From: an uncultured Clostridia bacterium
GTDB lineage: Bacteria; Bacillota; Clostridia; TANB77; CAG-508
Reading direction: 5' to 3'
Length of the DNA: 64,000 nucleotides
NCBI GenBank assembly: GCA_944387535.1
Contig: CALXFI010000001.1
Coordinates: 2,682-66,681, forward strand
Positions 1,309 through 52,558 of this stretch are shown here, one piece after another. Both the position numbers and the translations under genes were made by a program. Under the pieces are notes generated by a model, which did no database searches, had not been told where the DNA came from, and saw only the letters and a list, made by a program, of their open reading frames with translations. Within the stretch, counting starts at the first letter, position 1. Each line of letters begins with the position of its first letter.

Positions 1309-1317
1309 ATATAAAAT

Positions 1318-1345
1318 AGGTGTTCTAATATAAAGAACACCTATT
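1318..1345. terminator. Bidirectional intrinsic terminator hairpin (aggtgttct..agaacacct) flanked by A/T runs
   Basis: A perfect 9-bp inverted repeat sits between convergent genes. Confidence 0.5.
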
Positions 1346-1348
1346 TAT

Positions 1349-1804
1349 TTATAGTTCCCCATCATCTATATAATCAATTTTAGCTCTTACATTCTTTCTC
1401 TTTTTATTTATTAGCACAAGTATATTTATTACAATAATATCTATAAGAATATATTTCAAAGATTTACCATATCCGTTATCTTCTATATATTCCTTCAAAT
1501 CATTTAAATCGTTATCCAATATTCTTTCTTCTTCTCCATCATCGTAAAACAGTGTAAATTCATAATCGTTAAATGCTATAAAGAACTGTATTTTATCTAA
1601 ATCTTTTATATTTTCAATCTCTTCATACTGTTCACTTGTCTTTAGCATATTTTCTATTTCTTCTCTATTTTTATCATTTACAAATACTATTGTTTTTCCT
1701 AATCCTAAAAACATAAGATAAAAACTAAAAATAATATAAACTATTCCTATGAACATGAAAAATTTTAGCCATGATTCTAAATCAACTAACTTCTCTCTTT
1801 CCAT
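1349..1804 (-). CDS. Hypothetical membrane protein
   Basis: The ORF has hydrophobic helices at both termini and an AAGGAA ribosome-binding site upstream. Confidence 0.45.
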   Translation of the reverse strand: MEREKLVDLESWLKFFMFIGIVYIIFSFYLMFLGLGKTIVFVNDKNREEIENMLKTSEQYEEIENIKDLDKIQFFIAFNDYEFTLFYDDGEEERILDNDLNDLKEYIEDNGYGKSLKYILIDIIVINILVLINKKRKNVRAKIDYIDDGEL

Positions 1805-1843
1805 TTTCTCTATTTCCTTTTTTATATTTTACTAATTATTTTT

Positions 1844-2284
1844 CTATAATTTACCTTCTTTTAAATCTTTTACAAACTTTTCTTTTATCTCTGGTGGTAA
1901 CAATAGTAGATTTTCAATATCTTCTTTCTTTATGATTTCAGGTAGATAATCGCCACTATCAGCATATTTAGGATTGTGGCTAAACTCTGGTCCGTCCCCT
2001 GTTCCAAACTCACCTTCTACATATTCACAAAGAAAGAAATATTCCTTTTGATTAAATTTTTCAGACTCCATTTCATATAATTTTTTTATAACTTTAACAG
2101 TAATTCCAAACTCTTCTTTAATTTCTCTAATTACTCCCTCTTCTAAAGTCTCTCCTTCCTCTAGTCCTCCTCCTGGGAAAGTGTAATACTCCTGTATATC
2201 CTTTCTTTTTTTCACATTTTTTCTATGCATAAATGCATATCCATTATTAATTTTTATAATCCCTGCAACTCTTACTCTTTCCAT
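1844..2284 (-). CDS. NUDIX hydrolase
   Basis: Nudix box GGGLEEGETLEEGVIREIKEEFG. A strong AGGAGG ribosome-binding site lies upstream. Confidence 0.8.
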   Translation of the reverse strand: MERVRVAGIIKINNGYAFMHRKNVKKRKDIQEYYTFPGGGLEEGETLEEGVIREIKEEFGITVKVIKKLYEMESEKFNQKEYFFLCEYVEGEFGTGDGPEFSHNPKYADSGDYLPEIIKKEDIENLLLLPPEIKEKFVKDLKEGKL

Positions 2285-2408
2285 ATTTTCCTCCTTACTT
2301 TTTTATTATTCTATCACTTTTTTTAATTTTTTTATATATTTTTGTAGTAATTTTTTTCAATAGTGGTATAATTTTAAAGTAGAATTTTTTTACAAAGGAG
2401 ATGGTATT

Positions 2409-5018
2409 TTGGCAAACGCTAAAGAAGAAGTTAATGTAAGTAAGATGTATGGCGAAGAATGTACTTTGCCAAAAGATGAATTTATTAAAAAATACAGAGT
2501 TAATGAAGGTGGACTTTCTTCAAAAAGAGCAAGTGAATTAATTAAAAATTTAGGATTAAATGAAATAAAACAAGCAAAACCAAAAAAATGGTATCACTAC
2601 TTTTTTGAAAGTCTATTTACACCATTTAATTTAATTTTATTAGGAATTACTTTACTTTTGTGTTATACAGATGTTATCTTACCAGAAACACCTAGTTACG
2701 CCAATATTATTGTTATTGGTATCTTAGTTGCTGCAAGTACTTTGCTAGACTTTTTTGAAGAGTATCGTTCTAATAAGGCCGCAAATGAATTAAAAGAATT
2801 GGTAGCCACAACTTGTCATGTAATAAGAGATGGTAAAGATGTGCAAATTCCAATAAAGGAAGTAACTCTTGGTGATATAGTTATTCTTTCTGCTGGTAGT
2901 ATGATTCCAGCTGATTTAAGAGTTATTGAAGCAACAGACCTTTATGTTGGGCAATCTTCTCTAACTGGAGAATCAGATGCAGTTAAAAAGACTGTTGAAA
3001 CAGAAATAAATAAAGATGAATTGGATAGCATTGCAGATATAGATACTATTTGCTTTATGGGAACAAATGTAATTTCTGGAAGTGCAAAAGGTGTAGTTAT
3101 TAAAACAGCGGATTCCACCTATTTTGGAAAAATTGCCCACACATTAACTACAGGTAAACCAAAAACAGCTTTCCAAAAAGGAATTGAGAGTATTAGTAAA
3201 TTATTAATTAGATTTATGCTAATTATTATACCAATTGTCTTTATACTTAACTTTTCAAAACATAGTATTGTAACAGCATTTACATTTGCAGTAGCAATTT
3301 CTATTGCTATCACACCTCTACTTCTTCCTGTTATTTTATCTTCATGTTTATCAAAAGGTGCTGTAAAAATGTCTAAGAAAAAGACTATTGTAAAAAAACT
3401 AGATGCTATACAAAACTTTGGTGCTATGAATATTCTATGTACAGATAAAACAGGAACATTAACAGAAGATAAAATCGTTCTAGAAAAGTATTTAGACATA
3501 AAAGGTGATGAAGACCTTGGTGTTCTAAAATATGCATATTTAAATGCTAGTCTTCAAACAGGATTAAGAAGTAATATTGATGAAGCTGTAATTAAACGTG
3601 GCGCTGAATACAATATGCCTGAATTAACTAAAAAATATATAAAATTAGATGAAATACCTTTTGATTTTGCTCGTAGACGTTTATCTATTGCTGTAAAAAA
3701 TGAAGAAGGTAAAGATGAATTAATAACAAAAGGTGCCGTAGAAGAAATTCTAAATATATCTACTTCTGTAGAATATAAAGGAGAAGTTTCTCCGTTAACT
3801 AGAGAAATTAAAGAAAATATACAAAGAATAAGTAAAAACTTAAATAAAGAAGGTTTAAGAGTTATCGCAGTATGTAAAAAATACAGTAATGAACCAGGTT
3901 ATGATTTTGAAGTAAAAGATGAAAAAAATATGATATTAATTGGATTCATTGGTTTCTTAGACCCACCTAAAGAAAGTGCTAAACAAGCCGTTGAAAGAAT
4001 GAATAAAGCTGGAATTCGTGTAATTGTTTTAACAGGTGATAATGCAGAAGTAACAAAATGTATATGTGACAAGGTAAATATTAAATCTAAACACATAATC
4101 TTGGGAAGTGAATTAGATAAGTTATCAGATGTAGCTGTCCTTAGATTAGTTAGAAAAAATAATATTTTTGCAAAATTATCTCCTATCCAGAAAGCTAGAA
4201 TTGTAAGACTTTTAAAAGAAGATGGAAATGTTGTAGGCTATATGGGAGATGGAATTAATGATAGTCCATCACTTACAAACTCTGATGTTGGTATCTCAGT
4301 TGATACTGCTGTAGATATTGCCAAGGAATCTGCAGATATTATTCTTTTAGAGAAAGACTTAAATGTATTATTAGATGGTGTAACTGAAGGAAGAAAGACA
4401 TTTGCTAATTTAATGAAATATATTAAGATGGCAACAAGCTTTAACTTTGGTGAAGTATTATCTGTTATCGTCGCAAGTATTGCTTTACCATTTTTACCAG
4501 AAACACCTATTCAATTATTAGTAGAAGGTTTACTATATGACTTTGGACAAATGACACTTCCATTTGACGATGTAGACCCAGAAATTGTACGAAAACCTAA
4601 AAAATTAGATATTAAGAGTTTAAAACACTTTATGCTATTTATGGGACCAGTTAGCTCTATATTTGACTTAATTGTATTTGCATCTTTATGGTTTATCTTT
4701 GGCGTCAGAGAAGCAGCCCTTTTCCAAACAATTTGGTTCTCATATAGTATCGTTTCAAACTTAGTTGGAATGCATATTATTAGAACTGCAAAAATACCAT
4801 TTATACAAAGTAATGCAAATAAAATGGTATATTTCTCTTCTATCTTATTAATTTTAGTAGGACTTATCGTACCATTTACACCTTTAGGAAGTTTCATTGG
4901 ATTAGTTCCAATGGCAGCAGAAGATATTGTGTTAATCTTTGTTGTAACTTTCCTATATTGTATTTTAGCTATGTTTGCTAAAAAGATTTATATTAAAAAA
5001 TATGGAGAATGGATTTAA
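2409..5018 (+). CDS. mgtA: Magnesium-translocating P-type ATPase
   Basis: P-type ATPase motifs DKTGTLT, TGDN and GDGINDSPSL are present. The protein is 869 aa with about 10 TM segments. The start codon is TTG, preceded by an AGGAG ribosome-binding site. Confidence 0.9.
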   Translation: MANAKEEVNVSKMYGEECTLPKDEFIKKYRVNEGGLSSKRASELIKNLGLNEIKQAKPKKWYHYFFESLFTPFNLILLGITLLLCYTDVILPETPSYANIIVIGILVAASTLLDFFEEYRSNKAANELKELVATTCHVIRDGKDVQIPIKEVTLGDIVILSAGSMIPADLRVIEATDLYVGQSSLTGESDAVKKTVETEINKDELDSIADIDTICFMGTNVISGSAKGVVIKTADSTYFGKIAHTLTTGKPKTAFQKGIESISKLLIRFMLIIIPIVFILNFSKHSIVTAFTFAVAISIAITPLLLPVILSSCLSKGAVKMSKKKTIVKKLDAIQNFGAMNILCTDKTGTLTEDKIVLEKYLDIKGDEDLGVLKYAYLNASLQTGLRSNIDEAVIKRGAEYNMPELTKKYIKLDEIPFDFARRRLSIAVKNEEGKDELITKGAVEEILNISTSVEYKGEVSPLTREIKENIQRISKNLNKEGLRVIAVCKKYSNEPGYDFEVKDEKNMILIGFIGFLDPPKESAKQAVERMNKAGIRVIVLTGDNAEVTKCICDKVNIKSKHIILGSELDKLSDVAVLRLVRKNNIFAKLSPIQKARIVRLLKEDGNVVGYMGDGINDSPSLTNSDVGISVDTAVDIAKESADIILLEKDLNVLLDGVTEGRKTFANLMKYIKMATSFNFGEVLSVIVASIALPFLPETPIQLLVEGLLYDFGQMTLPFDDVDPEIVRKPKKLDIKSLKHFMLFMGPVSSIFDLIVFASLWFIFGVREAALFQTIWFSYSIVSNLVGMHIIRTAKIPFIQSNANKMVYFSSILLILVGLIVPFTPLGSFIGLVPMAAEDIVLIFVVTFLYCILAMFAKKIYIKKYGEWI

Positions 5019-5021
5019 AAA

Positions 5022-5043
5022 AGAGGGGTTTCAAATCCCCTCT
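5022..5043. terminator. Bidirectional terminator hairpin agaggggtttcaaatcccctct between convergent mgtA and dnaE
   Basis: An 8-bp GC-rich stem is flanked by A-run and T-run sequences. Confidence 0.6.
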
Positions 5044-5044
5044 T

Positions 5045-8000
5045 TTATTCAATTACATTTTCTGTTCCTATTAATTGTCCAAAGAATTTTAGTATTTCAT
5101 CTGTTACATACATTTGTCCACAAGGCTTATACTCTTCTCCTACCTTTATTTGGACATTTATATTATTTCTATCTCCATGGAAATAACATATTGCTCCTCT
5201 TAATTTGTCTTTATGTTCTTCATCTAAATTAGTTATATCTAATGTCAAAATTCTTTGTTTTTGTTCTCCAAAATCTTTAATTTCATTTGCAATAATAGTT
5301 GTAGTATCATCTTCTCTTATGCTTAATCTACCATCTACCATTACAATGTTTTCTTCTACTAAACTCTTCCCTGCTTTTAGATATGCATTTTCAAAAACAA
5401 TTACTTCTGCTGTACCATATAAATCTTCAATTGTTACAAATGCCATTATCTTGTTATTTTTAGTATATTTCTTTTTAATAGAAGTTATTATTCCTGCATA
5501 TTTTACATTTTGTCCATCTTGATATTTGGGTTTTTCATTTTGAATTTGGATATTTTCTTCACTTAAAGTCGTTGACATTTGCTCATCTAATTTCTTAAGT
5601 TCTAATGTATTTATATTAGTTTGTCTTTCTATTTGCTCCCTTAATTTTTCTAATGGGTGTCCTGATATATAAATTCCTAGCATTTCTTTTTCTAGTGATA
5701 ATAATTCTTTTTCTGGAAGTTCTTCGTGTTCTTCAAATTTATATTTCATTTCATTTAATTCTTCTTTTTGTTCACTACTTCCTAAGTCAAACATTGATAC
5801 TTGCCCTGCTAATCCCTTTTTCTTCTCACTCTGAATTGAATCCATTATCCCTTCAAATGATGCTAAAAGTGTACTTCTTGTTTGTTCAAATTCATCAAAT
5901 GCTCCTGCTTTTATTAAACTTTCCACGCATTTTTTATTTACCGCTTCATCCGCTATTCTTTCGTAAAAGTCTGTAAAACTTTTGTAATCACCATTTTCTG
6001 TTCTTTCTTTTACTATATTATTTACAGGTACAGTTCCAACATTTTTAATACTTCCAAGTCCAAAACGTATTTTTCCATCTTCAACTGTGAATTTAGTATT
6101 ACTTTTATTTATTTCTGGTTTTAATATTTCAATTCCTAAAGCTTTACACTCATCAATATATTGTGGTATTTTATCTAAATTACCTAAGAAACTATTTAAT
6201 GTTGCTGCCATAAATTCTGCTGGATAATATGCTTTTAAATAAGCTGTTCTATATGCTACTACTGCATAACAAGCTGCATGACTCTTATTAAATGCATATT
6301 TTGCAAACTCTGCCATCTCATCAAATATTTTATTGGCTGATTCTTCGTCTATTCCATTTCTTACACAACCTGGAACTACTACATTTCCATCTTCATCTAC
6401 TTGCCCATGAATAAATACTTCTCTTTCTTTAGCCATAACATCTAGCTTTTTCTTTCCCATTGCACGTCTTACTAAATCTGCTCTACCTAGAGAATATCCT
6501 GCTAAATCACGAACTATTTGCATAACCTGTTCTTGGTATACCATACAACCATAAGTTACATTTAAGATTGGCTCTAATCTTGGATGTGTATATTCATTAT
6601 GACCTGGATGTTTTTTACCTTTTATGTATCTTGGTATTTGGTCCATAGGTCCTGGTCTATATAAAGAAACCCCTGCTATTAAATCTTCCAAACAGTCTGG
6701 TTGTAACTCTTTCATGAAGTTTGTCATACCTTGAGACTCAAATTGGAATATTCCACAAGTTTTACCCTCTTGCCACAATTTATATACTTTTGGATCTGAC
6801 ATATCTTTATCAAATTCTATGTCTATTCCCTTGTCTTCTTTTACCATCTCTATTGTATCTTGTATTACAGTAAGAGTTCTAAGACCTAAAAAGTCCATTT
6901 TTAATAGTCCTAATTCTTCTAGTGTCGTCATTATATATTGTGTTGATATTTGTCCATCACGAACATATAAAGGAACATAAGTATCTACAGGATCTTTTGT
7001 AATAACTATACCACAAGCATGAGTTGAAGCCTGTCTTGGCATACCTTCTAATCCCATTGCTATATCTAAAACTTTTTTTACTGTTTCATCGCTCTGATAT
7101 CTATCACGTAATTCCTTATTTTGTTCTAATGCCTTCTTTATTGTTATATGTAATTCATTTGGTATCATCTTAGCTAGGCTATCTGCTTCTGAATATGGTA
7201 CATCTAAAACTCTTGCAACATCTCTTATTACCATTTTAGCTGCCATTGTCCCAAAGGTTATAATCTGTGACACATGGTCATGCCCATATTTTTCAGACAC
7301 ATAATCAATTACTTCTTGTCTACGTGTATCACTAAAGTCTACGTCAAAGTCAGGCATACTAATTCTTTCAGGATTTAAGAATCTTTCAAAAAGCAAATCA
7401 TATTTCATAGGGTCAATATCTGTTATTTCAATTGCATAAGCAATTATAGAACCTGCTCCAGATCCACGTCCTGGTCCTACTGATATTCCATGTGTCTTTG
7501 CATAATGAATAAAATCCCAAACAATTAAGAAATAATCAACATATCCCATTTTCTTGATTATACTAATTTCATATTCTGCTCTATCTAATATTTCCTTACT
7601 TGGATTTTCTCCATATCTTTTCTTTATTCCATCATCACATAACTTTTTAAAGAAATCAAAATGTGTTGGAAATTCAGGTGGTACATCATAATTAGGAAGT
7701 ATTGTATGTCCAAATTCAAATTCAACATTACATTTATCAGCAATTTTAACAGTGTTTTCTATTGCATCTGGAAAAGCTTTAAAATATTCACTCATTTCTT
7801 CTGGAGATTTTACATATAACTCATCTGTATCAAACCTCATTCTATCTACATCACTCATTCTTTTACCTGTTTGAATACAAAGTAAAACCTCGTGATTATA
7901 AGCATCTTCTTTTTTTAGGTAATGTGCATCATTTGTTGCAACTAATGGTATGTCTAGCTTTCTTGCAAGCTGTACTAACTTTTGATTTGCTAAGACTTGT

Positions 8001-17159: not shown

Positions 17160-20054
17160 TTATTCATTTGCATTATTAACTGTTACATTATTTTGCTCAT
17201 CTATTGTATTTTCACTTACAACATTTGTATCAGTAGAATTTGTTGTATTTCCATCTACTTGATTTTCATCTGCTTTTTGTTCCTCTCTTGCTTGTTCTAA
17301 TTGATTAATTAATTCTTGAAGTTTTGAAATGTCACTTCCCATTAACTCCCAATCATTATTTTCATTTGATTCAGTTAAGTTTTGGTTTGCTCTTATAATA
17401 GCATCAATAATTCCTTCTATATCTCCTGTATCTTCAACTTCAATATCAGTCGCATACCTTGAAAGTAAATTTTGTAATGCTTCTGTTAAAGTATCTCCTA
17501 TTGCAACCTTATTTCCAGATGCTACTATTACCTTCTTTAAAAGTGGAACATCTGATTCATTAAGCATTGTTTGATAGATAGGTTCTACATATAATAATGT
17601 ATTATTTATCGGAACTACTATCATTTGTTTTGTAAGTTTCGTTCCTGTTACATTTAAAGAATCTAACTGACTACTAATAGTTGTATCTTCTTCTATTTGT
17701 TTATCAAGTTGCATTGGACCTACTATATTACTATCAGCTGAGAATTTGTATAATCTTAACACATTTTCACCATTTTCATTGCTTCCTACTAAGTATGAAA
17801 TTATATTTTGCCTTTGATCTGGTGTATATATCTGTACTAATCCTAATTGCTCACCATTATTAGTTTTGACCATTGTATAATATGGTTCCATATATGTTCC
17901 TGTTGTATTTGTATTTCTTGTTGTACTAGATTTCGCAATATCCCACAAATCGTCTCCTCTATATATTACATCTGGTCTAGTATTATGGTATACTTTTAAA
18001 ACTTCTGCTTGAACATTATATAAGTATTCTGGATATACAAAGTGACTAGATATATCCTCTGGTATTTCTTCATCTAAATCTTTAAATAATCCATCATATA
18101 TATTTCTATAAGCCATAGCAATTGGATCTGTTCTATCAGTTATATAAAAGTCCATTGTTCCATCATAGCTATCAATTATTACTTTTACTGAATTTCTTAT
18201 ATAATTTATATCTTGTGTGTATCCATCATGTTCAATTGTAGTATATTGTGAAAATGGATAACTAGATGATACTGTATAAGCATCCAACACCCATACAATT
18301 CTTCCATCATTTGTAACAACTGTATATGGATTTTCATCATAAATTAAATATGGCATTGCTTTTTTAGCTCTTGTTATGATATCTCTATTTATTAATATCT
18401 TACTATCACTTGTCATTTCACTAGAGAAAGCTAAATTTAAATCCCCTTTTGAAATTCCAAGTACTAATCTATCTAAAAATCCTAAATTTAATCCAGCTTC
18501 GCCTGAATAAGTTGATACTTGATCTGTTCCGTTTTCATCTGTATAGTCATACTCTTGTTTATTTTTTGTATTTGTTGCTATTGTCTCATCTGTTTCTAGT
18601 CCGAAATATATTCTTGGCTCTGAAATATTAATTACTTCATCTGAACCTGATACATCACTTTGTACATATTTAATATTTCCACTATCTGTACTCTCTGTTG
18701 CAGATGTTATAATTTCTCCCATTCCATGAGTATATTCATATGTTTTATTACTATAAGTTCTTCCTGAATTAGTAATTTCTCTAGGCGCCAAATATACTAA
18801 TTTATCTTCACCATTTATATTATATTTTGCAAGTGTTGCATTTGGATAGACATAGTAGCCTGCATTTGATTGGTTATTTTGAATAGTCTCCAACACTGCA
18901 TCTTTACTAATTATTGGTATATTATTTATTACATTTTTTGCCTCATCTACTTCTTCTTGAGTTATTGTTCCTGAACTTTCAAGATTAGTTTCTTCAATTT
19001 CTATGTTATATGCTCTTTTTGTATTTTCTATATTTGCTGAAATATAGTCTCTTTCTTTATCTAATTCATTTGAATTTACATATATTAAGTCAAATCCTAG
19101 CATTGCAACAAATAATACAACTAGATATCCAGGTATTACTGCTAAGTTTTTTAATACTTTATTTGTACTTCCAGCTTTAAATGCTTTTAATGCTCTATAT
19201 GCAAATATTACAATTATAAATGCAAATATTACATATCCCCAAACTTGAATTGTTGCTTCTGTCATTCCAGCTCCATTTATCTCTATGTTGTCACCAACTG
19301 TAAGTATTTTTCCAAACATAACATTTTGAGTACCTAAAACAGTTAAAATCGCTATACCTATTACTATTAACATTACATTTCTAAGTAATTTCTTCATAAA
19401 TAAGCTTTCTTTTAACATTTTGCCATCTATTCCGTCGAAATATCGATTAAATACTATAATATAATATAGTGCCATATATATTGATAAACATACAAATAAT
19501 ATTACAAAATATAAGACGGCTGTTTCTATCAATGGTTTTAAAAACATATAATATGAAATATCTAATCCAAATATAGGATCTTGTATTCCAAATGATGCTT
19601 TACTTGTTGCTAGCATTATTTTTTGCATAAGAGCTGATGATGTAAAAAAGCTTACAATTGCTGATATTACTAATGCTAAAGATTTATTTGGAAGCTTTGG
19701 CATTTTTTTATTTTCATTATCAAAAAATACTTTTAATCCTTTTTTTATACCTCTATTTGTTAAATAGATAACTATATATAGAATAAGGAAAATAACAGCC
19801 ATAGTTGTATAACGATAAGTTATATTTGTTTTAAAAATATTAGTATATTCTTGTCCTAATTCTAAATATTCTAAATAACTTCCTCTTAATTGAACATAAC
19901 TAATTACTGCAAATATTAATAAAAATGCAATAACAAGCAACATTCTTGTTCTACTATTTTTCTTTCTTTTGACTTCCTTTTCCTTTGTTTCTACTGTTTT
20001 TGCTTCATTTACTTTTGTTTGGATATTTTCTTGTTTTTGGGTATCTTTATCCAC
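17160..20054 (-). CDS. Large polytopic membrane protein, probably UPF0182 family
   Basis: 964 aa with about 7 N-terminal TM helices, a large extracytoplasmic domain and an acidic C-terminal tail. Size and topology match the UPF0182 proteins of Clostridia. Confidence 0.5.
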   Translation of the reverse strand: MDKDTQKQENIQTKVNEAKTVETKEKEVKRKKNSRTRMLLVIAFLLIFAVISYVQLRGSYLEYLELGQEYTNIFKTNITYRYTTMAVIFLILYIVIYLTNRGIKKGLKVFFDNENKKMPKLPNKSLALVISAIVSFFTSSALMQKIMLATSKASFGIQDPIFGLDISYYMFLKPLIETAVLYFVILFVCLSIYMALYYIIVFNRYFDGIDGKMLKESLFMKKLLRNVMLIVIGIAILTVLGTQNVMFGKILTVGDNIEINGAGMTEATIQVWGYVIFAFIIVIFAYRALKAFKAGSTNKVLKNLAVIPGYLVVLFVAMLGFDLIYVNSNELDKERDYISANIENTKRAYNIEIEETNLESSGTITQEEVDEAKNVINNIPIISKDAVLETIQNNQSNAGYYVYPNATLAKYNINGEDKLVYLAPREITNSGRTYSNKTYEYTHGMGEIITSATESTDSGNIKYVQSDVSGSDEVINISEPRIYFGLETDETIATNTKNKQEYDYTDENGTDQVSTYSGEAGLNLGFLDRLVLGISKGDLNLAFSSEMTSDSKILINRDIITRAKKAMPYLIYDENPYTVVTNDGRIVWVLDAYTVSSSYPFSQYTTIEHDGYTQDINYIRNSVKVIIDSYDGTMDFYITDRTDPIAMAYRNIYDGLFKDLDEEIPEDISSHFVYPEYLYNVQAEVLKVYHNTRPDVIYRGDDLWDIAKSSTTRNTNTTGTYMEPYYTMVKTNNGEQLGLVQIYTPDQRQNIISYLVGSNENGENVLRLYKFSADSNIVGPMQLDKQIEEDTTISSQLDSLNVTGTKLTKQMIVVPINNTLLYVEPIYQTMLNESDVPLLKKVIVASGNKVAIGDTLTEALQNLLSRYATDIEVEDTGDIEGIIDAIIRANQNLTESNENNDWELMGSDISKLQELINQLEQAREEQKADENQVDGNTTNSTDTNVVSENTIDEQNNVTVNNANE

Positions 20055-20244
20055 TTTTTTACCTGCTACTCAAAATATGAACAAATATACTCATATCGAG
20101 ATCTTGAAAGTTTTCACAAACATTTCTTACTGCTTCATTGTGTATGCTTTTGTGGTTAAAACTAACTCACTACTCACAAGTTCTTGTACACTCCACAGTC
20201 GTAAATTCCCGACTAGCCATCGGTACATACTTACAATCGCTTGT

Positions 20245-21420
20245 TTATGCTATTTTGTAAGTTCTTGCATCTCTTAAATTAAGACTTGCATTAAAATCTC
20301 TATCTTCTATATATCCACAGTCACACTTATAAATTCTATCTGATAATTTTAAGTCATTTTTAATAAAACCACAATGATGACATATTTTACTAGATGGATA
20401 CCATCTATCTACAATTCTTAATTCAATTTCATATTCTTTGCATTTTGCTTCTAATTTTCTTTTAAATTCATAGAACTTTTGTGAAGCAATTGCTTTTGAA
20501 AGATGCCTATTCCTCATCATTCCTTTTACATTTAAATCTTCTATTGTTATATAAGATGGCTTGGTTTTCACTATCTCATTTATACTTTTGTTAATGTAAT
20601 CGCATCTAACGTTTTCTATTCTTTGATGAAGTCTTTGTACCTTTATGACTTGTTTTTGTATATTTTGTCTAGTAGCTTCTCCTTTCTTTTTATTTTCTTT
20701 GCTACGTTTTTTTAAGTCTTCGTATTTCCTCGATAGACAACGCTGCTCTTTCTTTAATTTTTTTTCAAGTTTTCTTATTCTTGCTGACTTGTTAATATTC
20801 TTTTTTACAGTCCCATCACTCATAATTGCAAAATCTTTTAGTCCTAAATCAATACCTAAGCCAAAATCATTTAATTTAGTCTTTTCTGATTTAGGAACAT
20901 CAATTAGAACAGATACATAATATCTTCCTGCTTTACAAGAAACTGTACCTCTTTTAATTACATACCCTTGTTTTGTCGTTGGAATATACCCTTTTTCTTT
21001 TAACTTCACCCAACCAAGTGTAGGAATCTTAATTCTATGTCTTTCACAAAAACAGTCTTTTTGATTGTTTTTTACAAAATACATTTTTACATCTGATTTA
21101 TTCTTTTTCTTAAAATTTGGAAAACCACTTTGTTTTTTAAAAAACTTTACAAAGGCAGTATATGCATTTTCCATAGCTTTCTTAACAGACTTTGAACTCG
21201 CCTTCTTTATCCAAAGATATTCTGGGTTATTTGGTATAAATTCATTGTTAAGCCAAACACTAAAAGTTCTAGCTGTCATAAATTTTTCGCCTTTATCATA
21301 AATTTCTTTGTTATGTGCAAGGTAAAAATTGTAAATAAATCTACAAGTCCCAATTGTTTGCTTAATTTTTACTATCTGTTCTGGTGTTGGTTTGATTTCC
21401 GTTTTGTAACTCTTTAGCAA
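20245..21420 (-). CDS. tnpB: TnpB (IS605 OrfB family RuvC-like RNA-guided endonuclease)
   Basis: RuvC-III region plus the C-terminal zinc finger CHHCGF..CDCGY. Ends ..DFNASLNLR. 391 aa. Confidence 0.85.
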   Translation of the reverse strand: MLKSYKTEIKPTPEQIVKIKQTIGTCRFIYNFYLAHNKEIYDKGEKFMTARTFSVWLNNEFIPNNPEYLWIKKASSKSVKKAMENAYTAFVKFFKKQSGFPNFKKKNKSDVKMYFVKNNQKDCFCERHRIKIPTLGWVKLKEKGYIPTTKQGYVIKRGTVSCKAGRYYVSVLIDVPKSEKTKLNDFGLGIDLGLKDFAIMSDGTVKKNINKSARIRKLEKKLKKEQRCLSRKYEDLKKRSKENKKKGEATRQNIQKQVIKVQRLHQRIENVRCDYINKSINEIVKTKPSYITIEDLNVKGMMRNRHLSKAIASQKFYEFKRKLEAKCKEYEIELRIVDRWYPSSKICHHCGFIKNDLKLSDRIYKCDCGYIEDRDFNASLNLRDARTYKIA

Positions 21421-29213: not shown

Positions 29214-29240
29214 TTAGCACTCTTTATCTCTGACTGCTAA
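29214..29240. promoter_or_regulatory. CIRCE operator (HrcA site) TTAGCACTC-N9-GACTGCTAA
   Basis: Matches TTAGCACTC-N9-GAGTGCTAA with one mismatch. It sits between the groESL promoter and groES. Confidence 0.8.
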
Positions 29241-29243
29241 TAC

Positions 29244-29270
29244 TGTATACCCTATTTTGCTAATTGTCAA
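29244..29270 (-). promoter_or_regulatory. Putative sigma-A promoter of groESL (-35 TTGACA, -10 TATACA or TACAGT)
   Basis: Motifs read on the minus strand immediately upstream of CIRCE. Confidence 0.4.
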
Positions 29271-29424
29271 TACCTATTTTTAATTTTTCACAAAATGTTC
29301 ACATTTTATTTTATTCTCCCTAAATTTCAATTATTACACGCTTCAAATAAAAAGAACCCTCTATTTCTAGAGGGAAAGATAAATTCTTTTTTAAGAGGTT
29401 ATTTAACACTCTCGTAAATCATTC

Positions 29425-30192
29425 TTAGAGATAGTTATTTAGCTCATCATTATACATCTTCATACAAATATTAAAATAACTTTCATAAATTTCATCTCCA
29501 TAGAGGCAGAACCTACAAATAAATCGTATTGATTCTAAGTCTTCTTCAATATTGAAACTGATTGAATCAAACCTTCTATAGGTCTCATTAACAGCATCAG
29601 AAATATTGTAGCCTTCTTCTTCCACGAAATTCTGAACCAGTGCAACAAAATCTTGTCCATATCCCAAAAAGTCTTCATCTACCCCTTCAGCTTCTTCTAT
29701 ATATTTATCTTCTGCTTGGGAACATTTAAAAGCTACATCTAGACTATCGAGAAAATTATCCAAATCTTCCCTTTCTTTATTATACTCATCTGTTCTCTTG
29801 TTAATTTTTTCAGCTTCTGCTTCAATATATATGCCAAGGAAATTTTCTATGATTTCTTTAATGCTGTAAAAAGCTGAATTTTCCTTAGTTACTGTGCATG
29901 ACATATCTCCTGTCCTTAACTTAAATCCAAGAAATTCAGCGTTTGAATCACATTCATATGTTTCAAACAGCATCTCTATGAAATTAGACTTTTTATCAAA
30001 ACAACCAGATAAAAAGCTAATAAGATTATTTCCGTCTACTATAGAAACTGCGATTTTATCCTCATATCTAGTAACAGCAATTGGCATTTTAATCATTACA
30101 AATCCATCTTCAAATCCGTCTACTAGAACCTCATATCCTTTCTCATCTTTGAAATAAAAAGCTTTTTTCACGTTTTTTATGATGGTTCTCAT
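29425..30192 (-). CDS. Acidic hypothetical protein (255 aa); member of a tandem paralog family
   Basis: Shares the motif ISGC[FL][DN][KE]KSNF and overall architecture with the ORF at 30393-31148. A conserved terminator module follows at about 29340-29375. Confidence 0.5.
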   Translation of the reverse strand: MRTIIKNVKKAFYFKDEKGYEVLVDGFEDGFVMIKMPIAVTRYEDKIAVSIVDGNNLISFLSGCFDKKSNFIEMLFETYECDSNAEFLGFKLRTGDMSCTVTKENSAFYSIKEIIENFLGIYIEAEAEKINKRTDEYNKEREDLDNFLDSLDVAFKCSQAEDKYIEEAEGVDEDFLGYGQDFVALVQNFVEEEGYNISDAVNETYRRFDSISFNIEEDLESIRFICRFCLYGDEIYESYFNICMKMYNDELNNYL

Positions 30193-30392
30193 GATATCCC
30201 TTTCTCTAAGTAAAATGATTTTACAATTACATATTGTTATTATATATTTTATTTACATAAAAGTCAATTAATAACTAATTCTAGGTAAAAAATATAAAAT
30301 CAAAAAAAGAAACCTCTATTTAAATAGAGGAAAAGAAAATTTTTTCTTTTTAGCATAATGGTTATTTAACCATTTGTTATTAGTTAGCCAAG

Positions 30393-31148
30393 TTAGAGTT
30401 CATCTATAATACTTTGCATTTGAAAATCAATTGCTTGTCTATTCCATTTTATAAGTTCATCTCCGTATTTCCAAGTATCAACAAGCAAATAGATTGCTTC
30501 TAGCATAATTTCACCTTTTGCCATCGTCAATGAATCAATGTCTTCAATTGCTTCATCTATTACTGCAGGAAACTTTTTATCCATATTCTCAACAAGATAC
30601 TGAATATATTTAGCTAAGTTGTCTGCACAGTCTACTATAAAGAATCCTATTTCTGTTTCTCTTAACTTATCAGTCTTCTTTCTCCACTTTCTTTCAGCCT
30701 CTTCGCTCACAAATTGAATTTCAGTGCTATAGACAATATCAGTTATATAGTCACAATATTGACAATGGAACGAACTATTGATAACTTCTCTTAAATCTCT
30801 TTCAAAATGTTTTATCATACTTGCGTCAATAGTAGATTGAATTTCATCTTTGTTCTTCTTTTCAGGCGAAATAAAGACATTGATACCTAATATGATAATA
30901 TTAATTCCCTTAAGTTTAGAATTTTCATCATAGCCATATGCTTTCATAAGCTCTTTTTTAAAATTAGATTTTTCATTAAGACAACCTGAAATAACTTTAA
31001 TAAACTCATCTAAATTTTTGTAATCCCATGTGGGTTTAATTGTTGCAACTCCATTTTCAAATTCTTTTACAAGCACAACATGATTATCTTGTGTCCGAAA
31101 CTTGTACATCTTCACAAATTCTTCGTCAGCATGTACAAATGTAAGCAT
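30393..31148 (-). CDS. Acidic hypothetical protein (251 aa); paralog of the ORF at 29425-30192
   Basis: Same family motif. The same AAAGAAACC-hairpin-AAAGAAAATT terminator module follows at about 30303-30350. Confidence 0.5.
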   Translation of the reverse strand: MLTFVHADEEFVKMYKFRTQDNHVVLVKEFENGVATIKPTWDYKNLDEFIKVISGCLNEKSNFKKELMKAYGYDENSKLKGINIIILGINVFISPEKKNKDEIQSTIDASMIKHFERDLREVINSSFHCQYCDYITDIVYSTEIQFVSEEAERKWRKKTDKLRETEIGFFIVDCADNLAKYIQYLVENMDKKFPAVIDEAIEDIDSLTMAKGEIMLEAIYLLVDTWKYGDELIKWNRQAIDFQMQSIIDEL

Positions 31149-31196
31149 AATACTCTCCCTTTCTTTTTACTAACTATAAACTTTAATTCTCATATA

Positions 31197-31394
31197 TTAT
31201 AACACAATTATATAATAATTAAAATAGTTATGTAAAATAAAAAGAAACCTCCTTTTTAAAGGAGGTAAAGAAAATTGTTTCATAGCTTCATCTAATTTTT
31301 CATACATTGCTGAAATTTTTAGATATGAACTAGTTACAGCAGTTTCGAAAGAACATCCATCTTTCATTGCACTTTGTACATACCTAGCTAGCAA
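31197..31394 (-). pseudogene. C-terminal remnant of a third paralog of the same family; the stop codon is lost and the ORF reads through the terminator hairpin
   Basis: ..KISAMYEKLDEAMK resembles the C-terminus ..NICMKMYNDELNNYL of the 255-aa paralog. The same terminator module lies inside the ORF at 31245-31290. No N-terminal part lies upstream. Confidence 0.35.
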
Positions 31395-31671
31395 ATCTCC
31401 AAAACTAACAATTTCTTTTTGTTCTTCGCTTTTAGCACTTTTAAACCATTTATCCCATGATTTTTCCCTTCTCTTATGGCTAAGCCTATGTATAATACTT
31501 CTTTACTATACCAGAAATTTACATAACTTTCAACCAAAAGTAGATTCTACTTCTAGTATAATTTTTTTAACCAATTCTCTTTGGTTTTTTAACATTGATT
31601 AACTATATTTTTTTATTAATAAATTTTAAAAAATAAGAAAAGACACAAAAATGTTAATTTCGTGTCCTAAT

Positions 31672-32029
31672 TGGTGGAGATGAGGAGAGTCGAACTCCTG
31701 TCCACAACACCTTCCACATAGATATCTACAAGTTTAGTTTGTTTATTTTATTCATTTTAATAACACCAACAAACAGGTTTTATTAAAATATAGCTTTTTA
31801 AAATACCCACTACTCCAAAAGCAAAAGTAGCTTCGTTTCCCACTAATATAACACTTTATCTAAAAAGGTGGGACTTTTTAGTAAAGCGGAGCTGCTCTTA
31901 GGCAGCTGCTAATGCTAATTCTTCGTTATCAGCGTTTATATTTATTTTCGCTTTTTTTAAGTGGCCAAAGCGACCATCCACTACTTGCAATCTATACTTC
32001 TAGTATTATGTCGAAACCATTGCATCCCC
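31672..32029 (-). ncRNA. ssrA: tmRNA (transfer-messenger RNA)
   Basis: 5' GGGGAUG and 3' ..GGAGUUCGACUCUCC(U)CAUCUCCACCA form a tRNA-like acceptor and T arm. The internal tag reading frame ends ..ADNEELALAAA then stop. A terminator hairpin (gacac..gtgtc) lies at 31643-31669. Confidence 0.85.
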
Positions 32030-32156: not shown

Positions 32157-32744
32157 TTGAAAATTTATCTTTTTAAAAAAAGAAATATTTTTATATTTCT
32201 AATATTTTTGTTATTATTTATATCTTCTATTTTTTACTTTTCAAACAATATAATTTTAGCAACAACTATTGATACTAAAGAAGTTTCAAGCGAATTTATA
32301 AATAATATTAATAATATATTTAATTCTAATGAAAAGATTGCTTACTTAACTTTTGATGATGGTCCAAGCCCTTCTGTTACTCCAAAAATTTTAGATATTC
32401 TAAAAGAAGAAAATATTAAAGCCACCTTTTTTGTAATAGGAAAAAAAGTTGAAGAATATCCTGAAATAGTAAATAGAGCTTATAAAGAAGGTCACTATAT
32501 TGCAAATCATGGATATAGTCACAATAATTCTATTTTATACAAAAATGTCAAGTCTTTTATCCAAGAAATTCAAAAAACAGATTTAGCAATTGGAAACGCT
32601 ATTGGTGTTAATGCTTATTCTTCGCATGTATTTAGATTTCCTAATGGATTTATGTCAAATGTATATAAAGATAAAAAGAATGAGTATGTAAAACTTTTAC
32701 CTAATATAGATTACACTTATATTGATTGGAATGCTTTAAGTGAA
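32157..32744 (+). pseudogene. Polysaccharide deacetylase (NodB domain), N-terminal part; the gene is split by an IS200/IS605-type insertion
   Basis: NodB motifs TFDDGP, HGYSH, RFPNG and DW(NA) are present. The ORF runs into the element end and terminates. Confidence 0.7.
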
Positions 32745-34220
32745 CTACCAACCACCTAAAGGTAGTTGGCTTCGAGGATGAAATTCTTTCATCCGTTTAA
32801 GAAGTTTGGTATTTAAGTTTCCACCTTTTTTAGGCAACCCTTATTCTTACAGGCGTGTCCACTTCGCCTCTACTGTATAGCCTCTCAAGAGACACAACGC
32901 TACTTTTTCTTAATATATTTAATGCTCCATTTACATCACTATTTATTAATCTTCCTTTAGAACTTTTATACATTCCTCTATATATTCTTTTTCCACTAAA
33001 CTTATATGCTATTTTATTATCTTCATCATATATTGGCATTTCATCTTTATCCCAGAAACTTGCTTTTGATGTATAGCTTTCTTCTTGTTTTACAAAAAGT
33101 ATATTATTTAACTTAGTTAGATATTCTAGTTTAGAATACAACTTGCCAAATGGTATATTTACAAATGTTTGATTGTTTTTCTTTCCTATTTTACTTTCTC
33201 TTTGAAATTTCTCATTATATCCTACAACAAGTGTTCCTATATCATTTGTAATACAATAATCTATTAATTTTCTTGCTGCTTTACTTATATAATCATTTAT
33301 TCTATTATTTCTTTTTCGTGTTATTATTTTCTGTTTTTTTGTTGTTTTCTTATTACTTATTCCTTGTTTATCTTTTATTTTTTGTAATCTTCCATTTTCT
33401 TTGTTATACCATTGATTTATTGACTTTACTTTCTTTCCATCTATTATGAAACTTTTTCCTTTATTTGTTACTGCTGTTACTAGATTATTTACTCCTAAAT
33501 CTATTGCTAGTACATTTTGGGTATTTAATTTTCTTTGAATTATTTCTACTTCATATATATATTGTATTTCAAAGAACCTAGCTTTTCCTTTTGGTATTAT
33601 TCGTATTTCTTTTATTTTCTTATCTAGTAATATTGGGGGAATTTTTATTTCTATTTGTTTATGATTTTTCTTATAACTATTTGAAAATGGTATTATTAAT
33701 TTATTTCCATTTAGTCTTACAAAACCTATTATTAAACTTGTATATCCGTCTTTTGAAAGATAATGTGGTAACCTACAATCTTTTATATTATATTTTCCTT
33801 CTTTTGATAATTTTAGTAATGAAAAAAATGATTTAAAACTTCCATCTACTTCTTTTATTATTTGCTGTGCCATATTTGAATTAAGTAATTTATAATTTTC
33901 TGACGTTTTAAGTAATTCATAATTTTTTGAATAGTTTAAATATTTTCCTTCAGCAAAATAGTATTGTCTTATATTGTATATTGCTTGATTAGTTAGATTT
34001 TTTGCTATATGACAAAGTTCTTTTATTATTTTATATTCTGCTTTAGACAGATGTTTTACTTGTTGTTTTACAGTTAAATACATATTTTTCACCTCCTCTA
34101 AATTTCTAGAATTTCTTTAGAAGTTTATTATATCAAAATCTAATATTTTTATCAAGCAATTTAATTTTACGAATCTCAAAAATTAGTTGCTTATATCCCA
34201 CCACCTAAAGGTAGTGGGTT
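32745..34220 (-). mobile_element. IS200/IS605-family tnpB-only element inserted in the polysaccharide deacetylase gene
   Basis: Similar subterminal imperfect hairpins occur at both ends: ccaaccacctaaaggtagttgg (32748-32769) and cccaccacctaaaggtagtggg (34197-34218). The host gene is split between NodB motifs 4 and 5. Boundaries are approximate. Confidence 0.6.
32830..34092 (-). CDS. tnpB: TnpB-like protein (IS605 OrfB family), 420 aa, without a C-terminal zinc finger
   Basis: RuvC-like motifs including ..INSDVNGALNI. N-terminal OrfB_IS605 region. Confidence 0.8.
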   Translation of the reverse strand: MKNMYLTVKQQVKHLSKAEYKIIKELCHIAKNLTNQAIYNIRQYYFAEGKYLNYSKNYELLKTSENYKLLNSNMAQQIIKEVDGSFKSFFSLLKLSKEGKYNIKDCRLPHYLSKDGYTSLIIGFVRLNGNKLIIPFSNSYKKNHKQIEIKIPPILLDKKIKEIRIIPKGKARFFEIQYIYEVEIIQRKLNTQNVLAIDLGVNNLVTAVTNKGKSFIIDGKKVKSINQWYNKENGRLQKIKDKQGISNKKTTKKQKIITRKRNNRINDYISKAARKLIDYCITNDIGTLVVGYNEKFQRESKIGKKNNQTFVNIPFGKLYSKLEYLTKLNNILFVKQEESYTSKASFWDKDEMPIYDEDNKIAYKFSGKRIYRGMYKSSKGRLINSDVNGALNILRKSSVVSLERLYSRGEVDTPVRIRVA

Positions 34221-34432
34221 TTACGCTCCCTTCTTATAAAGATTCAGAAAAAAAATACACTAAAAAACAATTATTAGATAATTTAATATTATCTTCAAAA
34301 AATAAAAATACTTTAGTTATTTTAATGCATGATACAAAAGATGTTAATGATAGCTCCCTTGTATTAAAAGATTCAATCAATTATTTAAAGTCTCAAGGTT
34401 ATGAATTTAAAAATTTTTACGATATTGAATAA
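34219..34432 (+). pseudogene. Polysaccharide deacetylase, C-terminal part (NodB motif 5, LMHD)
   Basis: Sequence ..TLVILMHDTKD continues the NodB domain interrupted at 32744. Confidence 0.65.
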
Positions 34433-51025: not shown

Positions 51026-52234
51026 TTATTTTCCTTCCATTTTAGCTTTTATTTTTACAGGTAAACCATATAAATTTATGAAACCTTGTGCATCTTTTTG
51101 ATCATATTCATCATCTTCATCAAAAGATGCTGTTTTTACTGAATATAAAGAATATTTACTTTCTAATCCGTTTGGAATTATATTTCCTTTATATAATTTT
51201 AATCCTACTTTTCCTGTTACTGTTTCTTGAGTTTTATCAACAAATGCACATATAGCTTCTTTTAATGGCATATTCCATTGTGCATTATAAAGAATTTCTC
51301 CTAATTTATTTGCTACTATTTGTTTAAAATGCATTGTTTCTTTATCTAAACAAATTGTTTCTAATAAGTGATGAGCTTTATAGATTATAGTTCCTCCAGG
51401 TGTTTCATAAACTCCTCTTGATTTCATCCCTACTAATCTATTTTCTACCATATCTAATATTCCTATACCATTTTCTCCACCTATTTTATTTAGTTTTTCT
51501 ATTAGTTCTACTAAGCTTAATTTTTCTCCATTTAAAGCAACAGGTAATCCCTTTTCAAATTCTAATTCTATAATAGTTTCTTCATCTTTTGCTTTTTGTG
51601 GAGTTACTCCCATTTCTAATATTTCATCATATTTAGGAACATTTGCTATATCTTCTAAATCTAATCCTTCATGTGATAAATGCCATAAATTTTTATCTTT
51701 AGAGTAATTTGTCTCTCTACTTATCTTTAAAGGTATTTTATGTTTTTCTGCATAATCAATTGCATCTTCCCTACTTTTAATATCCCAAATTCTCCATGGT
51801 GCAATAACTGGCATATCTGGTGCTAATGCTTTTATTGCAAGTTCAAATCTTACTTGGTCATTTCCTTTACCTGTACATCCATGGCAAATTGCATCTGCTC
51901 CCTCTTTTTTAGCAATCTCTACAAGTTTTTTTGCAAGTAATGGTCTTGTAAATGGTGTTCCAAGTAGGTAAACTCCTTCATATGTTGCTCCTGCTTTTAT
52001 TGCCGGTGCAATATAATCATTTGCCATTTCTTCTCTTAAATCTAAAACATATAATTTAGATGCTCCTGAATTTTTAGCTTTTTCTTCTAATCCTTCTAAT
52101 TCATAATCCCCTTGCCCAACATTTCCTGTAACTGCTATTACTTCACAGTTATTATAATTTTCTTTTAACCAAGTGATAATAATTGAAGTATCTAATCCTC
52201 CTGAATACGATAATACTATTTTTTTATAACTCAT
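51026..52234 (-). CDS. argG: Argininosuccinate synthase
   Basis: N-terminal P-loop-like AYSGGLDTS motif. The start was set at MSYKK with a GGAGGA ribosome-binding site at 6-nt spacing. Confidence 0.9.
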
Positions 52235-52261
52235 TTTGAATCCTCCTTTTAATAAAAATCT

Positions 52262-52558
52262 AATGATTATTTTTAACAATTTATATAAAAAATAGCGCCT
52301 CCTTTACAAGAGACGCTAAAAATACGTGGTACCACTCTAATTATTTATATATTTTTAATTTCTATATAAATCACTCATTCTCTATAACGCCGAGTCCGCG
52401 AACTATGATACTAAATATTTAAATTTTTCCCATAGCCACTCATAAGCTCTTTTCATCTTATAATCCACATGTTAGCTCTCACTCTACCTAACTCGCTGTT
52501 GCTTCAATATAAAACTACTCTCTTAATCATCGATTTTATTATTAATTTTTAAACTATA
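52262..52558 (-). promoter_or_regulatory. T-box riboswitch leader upstream of argG-argH
   Basis: Conserved T-box sequence AAUUAGAGUGGUACCACG (plus-strand 52324-52341 reverse-complemented). An intrinsic terminator AGCGUCUC..GAGGCGCU plus U-run (52292-52315) lies immediately downstream. A sigma-A promoter TTGACA-17-TATACT is at 52565-52593. The stem I region carries AGAGA and a GUAGAGUGAGAG distal-loop motif. Confidence 0.7.

Follow-up and report, generated by a model that had tools for sequence, protein, structure and literature searches.

Tandem cassettes for acidic proteins with a predicted Tad4-family domain upstream of groES in uncultured Clostridia

Results

The locus described here lies in a stretch of 64,000 nucleotides (nt) from an uncultured Clostridia bacterium (contig CALXFI010000001.1), which is called the window and to which all coordinates refer. 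It contains an array of related genes on the minus strand, where the order is ssrA, a degenerate segment, an open reading frame (ORF) of 251 amino acids (aa), an ORF of 255 aa, groES and groEL (Table 1). The 251-aa and 255-aa genes are referred to as C type and B type and the degenerate copy as A type; L-numbers designate related loci or strains, and P-numbers related proteins. In the window ORF list, only ORFs of this family stand between ssrA and groES, and a family profile run over the 64 kb recognized exactly three segments, namely the two genes and the fragment. A preliminary description, made from the letters of the sequence alone, had placed two full-length and strongly acidic paralogs of these sizes downstream of the tmRNA 3' end. 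This picture was confirmed: both ORFs are present, the array lies 3' of ssrA, and the proteins have a pI of 4.89 (net charge -13, 251 aa) and 4.29 (net charge -27, 255 aa). On its other side, the array has a fixed right-hand boundary, the groES promoter segment, whose inverted repeat TTAGCAGTC-N9-GAGTGCTAA is CIRCE-like by comparison with the known consensus. The 251-aa protein is a 100% match to P0001, which is present on 12 contigs.

The two proteins align over their full length with 22% identity (BLASTP, E = 9e-9), and they are true paralogs of old divergence. Both contain the motif SGC[FL]xxKSNF, which reads ISGCLNEKSNF in the 251-aa protein; the longer version first given, ISGC[FL][DN][KE]KSNF, needs correction in its first residue, which is L and not I in the 255-aa protein. 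Taken with the genes of the related loci, the members form three subfamilies of old origin (A, B and C) with one common architecture: an N-terminal alpha/beta domain (residues ~1-115) that carries SGC[FL]xxxSNF, then a linker of helical structure, and at the C terminus the helical Tad4 domain. The C-terminal ~100 aa are assigned by profile to the Tad4 family, PF25186. The 251-aa C type reaches 32.3 bits (gathering score 25, E = 1.3e-7), with residues 152-238 aligned to model positions 6-92 of 113, while A-type orthologs score 35.0 and 27.7 bits and the C type of L008 scores 25.0. In a profile search, the 255-aa B type matched the N-only and C-only alignments of the family (E = 2e-17 and 2.9e-12, respectively); it has diverged, with CLYGDEI where WKYGDEL would stand. 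The motifs AKY[IM]Q and WKYG[DE]EL are common to the array family and the stand-alone phage proteins, and an hhalign comparison of the array family with the stand-alone C-domain proteins gave 99.6% (E = 1.3e-23). The N-domain (~110 aa) has no Pfam family. The A and C types thus match the Tad4 profile above its gathering score, and the array proteins are neither of the ~110-aa single-domain form nor encoded by a phage.

AlphaFold2 (AF2) models of both proteins were obtained, with a predicted local distance difference test score (pLDDT) of 87.5 and a predicted template modelling score (pTM) of 0.79 for the 251-aa protein, and a pLDDT of 88.5 for the 255-aa protein. In the models, the N-domain has the order beta-beta-beta-alpha-alpha-beta-beta-alpha and is connected through a long linker helix to a C-domain of five helices. 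The best fold match in BFVD was a mycobacteriophage protein (probability 1.0), and it covers the C-domain only. Variation among B orthologs is greatest in the beta-hairpin 38-55, in the linker and in the C-domain loop 207-220; this loop shows the highest entropy and the lowest pLDDT of the C-domain.

Each gene is predicted to be a complete cassette, with a near-consensus sigma-70 promoter, a strong ribosome-binding site (RBS), a coding sequence of ~250 aa, a stem-loop and an intrinsic terminator (Table 1). As had been noticed before, the same module follows each copy: it is 43 nt long, its three versions are 74-84% identical, and all three were scored as intrinsic terminators. Together with the terminator of ssrA they make up the four intrinsic-terminator sites found in the array region, where 0.7 were expected; with at most three mismatches allowed, the module pattern matched 8 times in the window (0.34 expected). 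A genome-wide repeat element was considered and rejected, since within the 64 kb the hairpin/terminator module is confined to the array; a third match of the hairpin 1 core GTTAAATAAC, at position 39126, falls within a coding region. The promoters of the A and B cassettes have the same spacer, TTATGTAAAT, and both hairpins are found in each of the two intact cassettes; therefore, the duplicated unit comprised promoter, gene and both hairpins. It does include the gene and terminator initially proposed as the unit, and is larger by the promoter and hairpin 1. Since every cassette has its own terminator and groES its own CIRCE-type promoter, there is no operon link between the array and groES.

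The 3' hairpins were also evaluated by covariation, on a set of 21 3' modules from ten related loci (alignment, RNAalifold and single-sequence folds). In both hairpins, 90.9% of the cells were paired, compared with 77.7% in shuffles, and double-sided changes amounted to 33 cells against 10.3 in shuffles, with none of 500 shuffles reaching the observed values. When the partner was slid by 1-3 columns as a control, pairing fell to 43-67%. Compensatory changes preserve both 3' hairpins. In hairpin 1, the loop and the core GTTAAATAAC are nearly invariant and the stem covaries.

The third copy is a real member of the family (profile match E = 6.8e-11; 44% aa identity to an intact paralog in L007). 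It had been taken for a decayed C-terminal fragment that had lost its stop codon, but it turned out to be a whole cassette, with promoter, RBS and ATG, that is internally deleted. In the sister species L017 (metagenome-assembled genome (MAG) CALXCH01, ~90% nt identity) the A gene is intact at L017 6125-6880. By BLAST, the window from 32739 to 31455 matches L017 4854-6128, that is, up to the start codon of A, and the window from 31466 to 31274 matches L017 6581-6773 (89%), which holds codons ~153-216 of A. These two matches overlap by a 12-nt repeat, GAAAAATCATGG, located at 31455-31466 of the window and at 6117-6128 and 6581-6592 of L017; one copy of it overlaps the RBS and start codon, and the other lies at codon ~150. 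The A gene has therefore undergone a precise 452-nt direct-repeat deletion, which took codons ~2-152, so that promoter, RBS and ATG are now followed by GGA TAA. The last ~35 codons and hairpin 1 were lost in a second deletion (~147 nt), which joined the gene body to the terminator. The same remnant recurs in strains with 99.8-100% identity to the window. The loss of the A copy is a recent pseudogenization and shows cleanly how a gene can be lost through repeats. Another candidate parent of the fragment, the 306-aa protein of L007, was rejected as unrelated, the parent being an A-type gene.

Ten related lineages carry 1-3 copies each, all immediately upstream of groES. The carriers are seven GTDB species, all of them uncultured Clostridia MAGs from one project, and the family is very rare (5 and 7 clusters among 5.8 billion proteins). 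The content of the ssrA-groES junction is variable in number and order: B only in L012 and L013, A'-B in L019-L022, B-B in L023, a deleted A and then C-B in the window, A-C-B in L017 and L018, and A-B-C in L007 and L008. The B subfamily is the only one of the three found in every lineage. The CTTTCCCTCTAGAAATAGAGGGTTC version of the module is the last before groES in most related loci, whether B or C precedes it, with small loop or stem variants of this last module in L022 and in L019-L021/L013. The alignments of L018 and L008 break within inter-cassette modules, and the order change in L008 appears to break at the hairpin 1 core. These breakpoints, together with the constant last module, point to recombination within the conserved modules. 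The array gains, loses and reorders copies between species, with breakpoints inside the inter-cassette modules.

Across the lineages GroEL is 94-98% identical, versus 35-47% for the family members. In the closest pair, the window and L017, the whole-gene ratio of nonsynonymous to synonymous substitution rates (dN/dS) was 0.28 (C) and 0.31 (B), next to 0.31 and 0.30 for the neighbouring PHP and deacetylase genes. It follows that the genes are functional and that, over short range, ordinary purifying selection acts on them. Strong positive selection was considered and discarded, given whole-gene values of ~0.3 equal to those of the neighbours. The GC content of the array (28.9%) is close to that of the window (28.1%). 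The array is a native, vertically inherited, copy-number-variable set of chromosomal cassettes in a 28%-GC clade of uncultured gut Clostridia.

An exhaustive profile search collected 224 family representatives (clustered at 50% identity, E <= 1e-3), and a new search of protein databases with a 60-sequence profile added almost no members. The representatives are two-domain proteins of 220-290 aa, stand-alone N-domains (~115-130 aa), stand-alone C-domains (~105-125 aa) and a few tandem fusions. Of 60 two-domain relatives, 47 match PF25186, as do 19 of the 21 that consist of a C-domain alone. Tandem fusions such as P0097 (494 aa) and P0080 (373 aa) have the orders N-C-N-C and N-C-C, and both domains therefore act as modules that are independent and reusable. 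In cultured phages the C-domain occurs alone, as a ~109-aa protein of Bacillus Herelleviridae; gp095 of Bacillus phage BCP8-2 (109 aa, 143.7 bits) is ~50% identical to the C-domain of P0033. The 251-aa protein had no tblastn match in 50,697 phage records. The N-only relative P0075 had none in cultured phages either, and matches of P0033 there were restricted to the C-domain. A phage origin of the N-domain was rejected, as no N-domain match was found in cultured phages. Among plasmids, only a C-domain match was obtained, in Clostridium baratii. No relative was found in IMG/VR with short peptide-pattern scans, which may miss distant relatives.

Two-domain distant relatives from human-gut metagenomes stand in varied contexts, without a conserved partner gene. 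The L027 and L033 relatives are single genes among housekeeping genes, beside a MazF toxin; the L024 relative lies beside a Mob_Pre relaxase and an integrase fragment; in L045 two relatives stand in tandem, with a tRNA and a Fic gene as neighbours. At L041 (654-3930), a 292-aa relative is accompanied by an acidic 313-aa ORF, SUKH-1 (SMI1_KNR4) and an Rce1-like/CPBP membrane protease, a neighbourhood typical of immunity genes.

Another aspect to consider is the relation of the array to ssrA, whose 3' end had been described as an integration hotspot. This is the case: the sister strains L001 and L002 share 99.86% identity with the window rightwards of 31682, across the array, and to the left of the junction (their positions 1-5466) they carry a holin, an endolysin (Amidase_2 + CW_7) and HicB, that is, the lysis end of a prophage. 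This end abuts the last ~11 nt of ssrA (31672-31682), and CATCTCCACCA is common to the junction and the ssrA 3' end, so that ssrA is a live attB site in the lineage. The array itself is outside the L001 prophage, beyond attR in the chromosome.

The flank next to ssrA is a variable spot in its own right, with inserts that differ between lineages. An HTH_26 regulator and a 306-aa protein without family match are found between ssrA and the array in L007 (3950-5549), and a 126-aa very acidic ORF in L019 (6307-6687). In L023 (7281-7712) ssrA itself is inverted, with its 5' end toward the array and 5 nt from a tRNA-Gly, and the left flank has different genes, among them two ORFs (421 aa and 230 aa) with the look of an aminoacyl-tRNA synthetase and of a small alarmone synthetase, respectively. 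The array-groES junction of L023 is unchanged despite this inversion.

It was suggested at first that the array could be a remnant island at ssrA, bounded by a direct repeat of the ssrA 3' end. No such repeat exists: patterns of 32 nt and 24 nt, with at most three mismatches, matched only ssrA itself in the window. As was also stated then, no toxin, integrase or phage gene was found in the array, and the ORFs and the Pfam, PHROG and NCBIfam results include no mobility gene there. Neither presence/absence between lineages nor atypical composition was observed, since at least one copy is present in 10 of 10 lineages with native GC. The native GC, the dN/dS of ~0.3, the lack of an att repeat and the searches of phages and viral contigs without relatives mean that the interpretation as an island remnant fails. 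The array is tied to groES rather than to the 3' end of ssrA. It is no remnant of an island in a recent sense, and for any recent event this explanation is largely refuted. In an older version, the array would be moron or anti-defence cargo left behind after the ancient integration of a prophage or island at the 3' end of ssrA. Apart from the live attB site, with the prophage end at 31682 in L001 and L002, and the variable flank, this would be consistent with a C-domain from a phage anti-defence family and with stand-alone promoter-gene-terminator units, which are moron-like. We regard it as very unlikely, because the array, which is external to the L001 prophage, contains neither an integrase nor a phage gene, has the GC of the genome background, is flanked by no ssrA 3' repeat at up to three mismatches, and is tied to groES in every related lineage, including L023 with its inverted ssrA. 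The IMG/VR scans without relatives, and the 50,697 phage records without an N-domain match, count against it as well.

Table 1. Positions of the array genes, their signals and the flanking features in the window.
Feature	Position	Strand	Basis
C-type gene, 251 aa	30393-31148	minus	ORF list; PF25186 match; AF2 model
C-type promoter, TTTACA-18-TATAAT, 11/12 consensus positions	31207-31236	minus	promoter scan
C-cassette hairpin 1, 3' untranslated region (UTR), AATGGTT-AAAT-AACCATT	30357-30374	minus	folding; covariation
C-cassette terminator module: A-tract, hairpin 30330..30313, T-run	30304-30346	minus	module search; terminator scan; folding
B-type gene, 255 aa	29425-30192	minus	ORF list; full-length BLASTP to 251-aa paralog; profile matches; AF2 model
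B-type promoter, TTGACT-17-TATAAT, 11/12, kept across all related species	30239-30267	minus	promoter scan; locus comparison
B-cassette hairpin 1, 3' UTR, core GTTAAATAAC	29393-29413	minus	pattern search; folding; covariation
B-cassette terminator module, CTTTCCCTCTAGAAATAGAGGGTTC version, hairpin 29374..29357	29349-29391	minus	module search; terminator scan
Dead A-type cassette	31239-31533	minus	BLAST to L017; alignment; profile; promoter/terminator scan
A-type promoter, TTGAAA-17-TATAGT	31533..31505	minus	promoter scan
A-type RBS and ATG, then GGA TAA	ATG 31458-31456	minus	sequence
Remaining A-gene body, about codons 150-216 of the intact gene	31466-31274	minus	BLAST to L017
A-type terminator hairpin, within module copy 31239-31281	31266..31247	minus	terminator scan
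ssrA (tmRNA), tag ADNEELALAAA	31672-32029	minus	ARAGORN; Rfam RF00023, 188 bits
Terminator-like hairpin immediately 3' of ssrA	31640-31668	minus	terminator scan
groES promoter, TTGACA-17-TACAGT, and inverted repeat TTAGCAGTC-N9-GAGTGCTAA (29240-29214)	29214-29270	minus	sequence; promoter scan

Other features were observed in the window. A TnpB-only element of the IS200/IS605 type (~1.5 kb, 32740-34235; TnpB ORF 32830-34092, minus strand) splits a polysaccharide deacetylase gene into 32157-32759 and 34187-34432; in the sister species L017 the insertion is missing, and the two flanks join directly (L017 4853/4854). A RAGATH-18 RNA (20127-20199, minus strand; 73.9 bits, over the Rfam gathering score) is located directly downstream of a 391-aa ORF (20245-21420) and upstream of a 964-aa ORF (17160-20054), both on the minus strand. 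In addition, a T-box leader (52306-52539, minus strand; 95.9 bits, gathering score 93) precedes a 417-aa ORF (51026-52279).

Discussion

The array resembles several known systems without being identical to any of them. As in integrons, single-gene units stand in tandem with conserved imperfect palindromes between them, and their order and number change with breakpoints at these palindromes. However, no integrase ORF is found nearby and no attI is present, the cassettes have their own promoters with 11/12 consensus positions, all of them are paralogous, and the palindrome, in place of an attC site, is a hairpin of 18-21 nt with an intrinsic terminator behind it. Homologous recombination or slippage is enough to account for the changes in the array. 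The array also resembles ssrA-borne prophages and islands in adjoining ssrA, which serves as attB for the L001 prophage, but it is outside the element, without att repeat, integrase or compositional skew, and remains bound to groES when ssrA is inverted.

A second comparison is with the orphan immunity gene arrays, or acquired interbacterial defence clusters, that Ross and colleagues reportedly described in gut bacteria in Nature in 2019. These share with our locus tandem, small, diverse, acidic and toxin-less paralogs in gut anaerobes, with a copy number that varies between strains. In contrast, in the clade studied here the proteins match no known immunity family, there is no association with recombinases or mobile elements, the position is fixed and vertically inherited, and each gene has its own promoter and terminator. 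The array could accordingly be thought of as a resident interbacterial-defence array, its products being orphan immunity proteins that protect from the polymorphic toxins of competitors, whether contact-dependent or secreted, with targets that are not necessarily TIR or NADase enzymes. The tandem divergent small acidic paralogs, their variable copy number without a cognate toxin, the L041 neighbours SUKH-1 and Rce1-like/CPBP, which are of types often linked to immunity, and the L045 pair beside a tRNA and a Fic gene all fit this idea. Nevertheless, we consider it unlikely: no described immunity family was matched in Pfam, NCBIfam or PADLOC, the ten array loci, where the neighbours are ssrA and groES throughout, contain neither a toxin gene or the C-terminal fragment of one nor genes for a secretion system or a recombinase, and a SUKH gene stands beside a single relative, in just one of several unrelated contexts.

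The closest relationship is that with Tad4 itself. Phage Tad4 (Yirmiya et al. 2025, Cell, doi 10.1016/j.cell.2024.12.035), an inhibitor of type I Thoeris, is described in the literature as binding the TIR protein ThsB and plugging its NAD-processing site by means of a flexible loop. The C-terminal ~90-100 residues of the array proteins are homologous to it, with the A and C types above the gathering score. The differences concern size (a stand-alone phage protein of ~110 aa, compared with ~250 aa including an additional N-domain and linker), location (encoded by phages, compared with several paralogs at a fixed core position of the host chromosome) and sequence, in that the B type has diverged.

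By analogy with phage Tad4, we tentatively propose, as the most likely of the explanations considered though one that falls short of being probable, that the array proteins could be stoichiometric inhibitors of TIR/NADase-type enzymes acting for the host. Abundant, acidic and constitutively expressed, they would bind TIR- or NADase-type enzymes stoichiometrically, and the specificity of each paralog for its target would be set by the variable loop (~207-220 in the B type) and by the N-domain. This variable and less confidently modelled loop is the only sign, and an indirect one, of a plugging loop like that of Tad4. They would thus be resident antidotes or immunity factors of the host and not phage tools, and might be used against incoming NADase effectors or as a brake on the host's own. 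In this respect, the anti-defence gene array initially suggested stands as far as the C-domain is concerned (PF25186 above the cutoff; hhalign 99.6%), and lacks support in its island setting. Membership in a defence system was rejected, since PADLOC gave no match.

Several observations weigh against this proposal. The B type, the only subfamily in every lineage, is under the PF25186 threshold by itself. The characterized Tad4 is a ~110-aa stand-alone phage protein, and Pfam membership means a shared domain and not a shared target. No solved structure similar to either domain was found for the AF2 models. In the contexts examined, no TIR, ThsB or NADase gene was seen beside any family member, nor was there a consistent partner gene. 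Moreover, constitutive inhibition of TIR enzymes would seem self-harming unless the target is foreign or the inhibitor labile.

The main rival explanation is that the likeness to Tad4 reflects a shared helical scaffold only. The proteins would then be clade-specific cellular proteins with a structural, regulatory or stress role and no link to NADases or immunity, and their adjacency to groESL could be meaningful or accidental. An invariant position beside groES in ten lineages, purifying selection and native composition would be expected of such proteins; it would further agree with a universal B type below the Pfam threshold, with array loci where no defence or toxin partner was seen and PADLOC found nothing, and with the L027 and L033 relatives among housekeeping genes. 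Against it, tandem paralogs at 20-30% identity in 1-3 copies, with reshuffling and a recent dead copy, are rare for housekeeping proteins; the distribution outside the clade is patchy, with some relatives beside Mob_Pre relaxase, Fic, MazF or SUKH-1; and the individual terminators of the cassettes, together with the CIRCE-type promoter of groES, leave no operon link to the chaperonin genes. We regard this explanation as nearly as likely as TIR/NADase inhibition and likewise short of probable; compared with it, the orphan-immunity and ssrA-cargo explanations are less likely alternatives to TIR/NADase inhibition.

Going further than the proposed inhibition of TIR/NADase enzymes, core chromosomal Tad4-domain proteins might be endogenous and possibly labile brakes or guards on TIR/NADase effectors, or antidotes of NADase toxins. 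Phage Tad4 would then be a captured and trimmed host regulator, or the reverse, and the array would diversify specificities by shuffling cassettes at the hairpin modules. This extension is a speculation to which we give little credit.

Up to now Tad4 was known only as a small phage weapon against Thoeris. What is new in the present case is a predicted Tad4 domain joined to an undescribed N-domain, in several copies, under purifying selection and at a fixed core locus of the host. Whatever the function, the work defines a new two-domain family (224 representatives at 50% identity) and a new stand-alone N-domain family, and provides a clear case of promoter-gene-terminator cassettes that are duplicated, reordered and deleted via their flanking modules. 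If the binding of TIR or NADase enzymes were true, the array proteins would be host-side inhibitors of a conserved immune chemistry and would indicate from where the phage anti-defence protein evolved.

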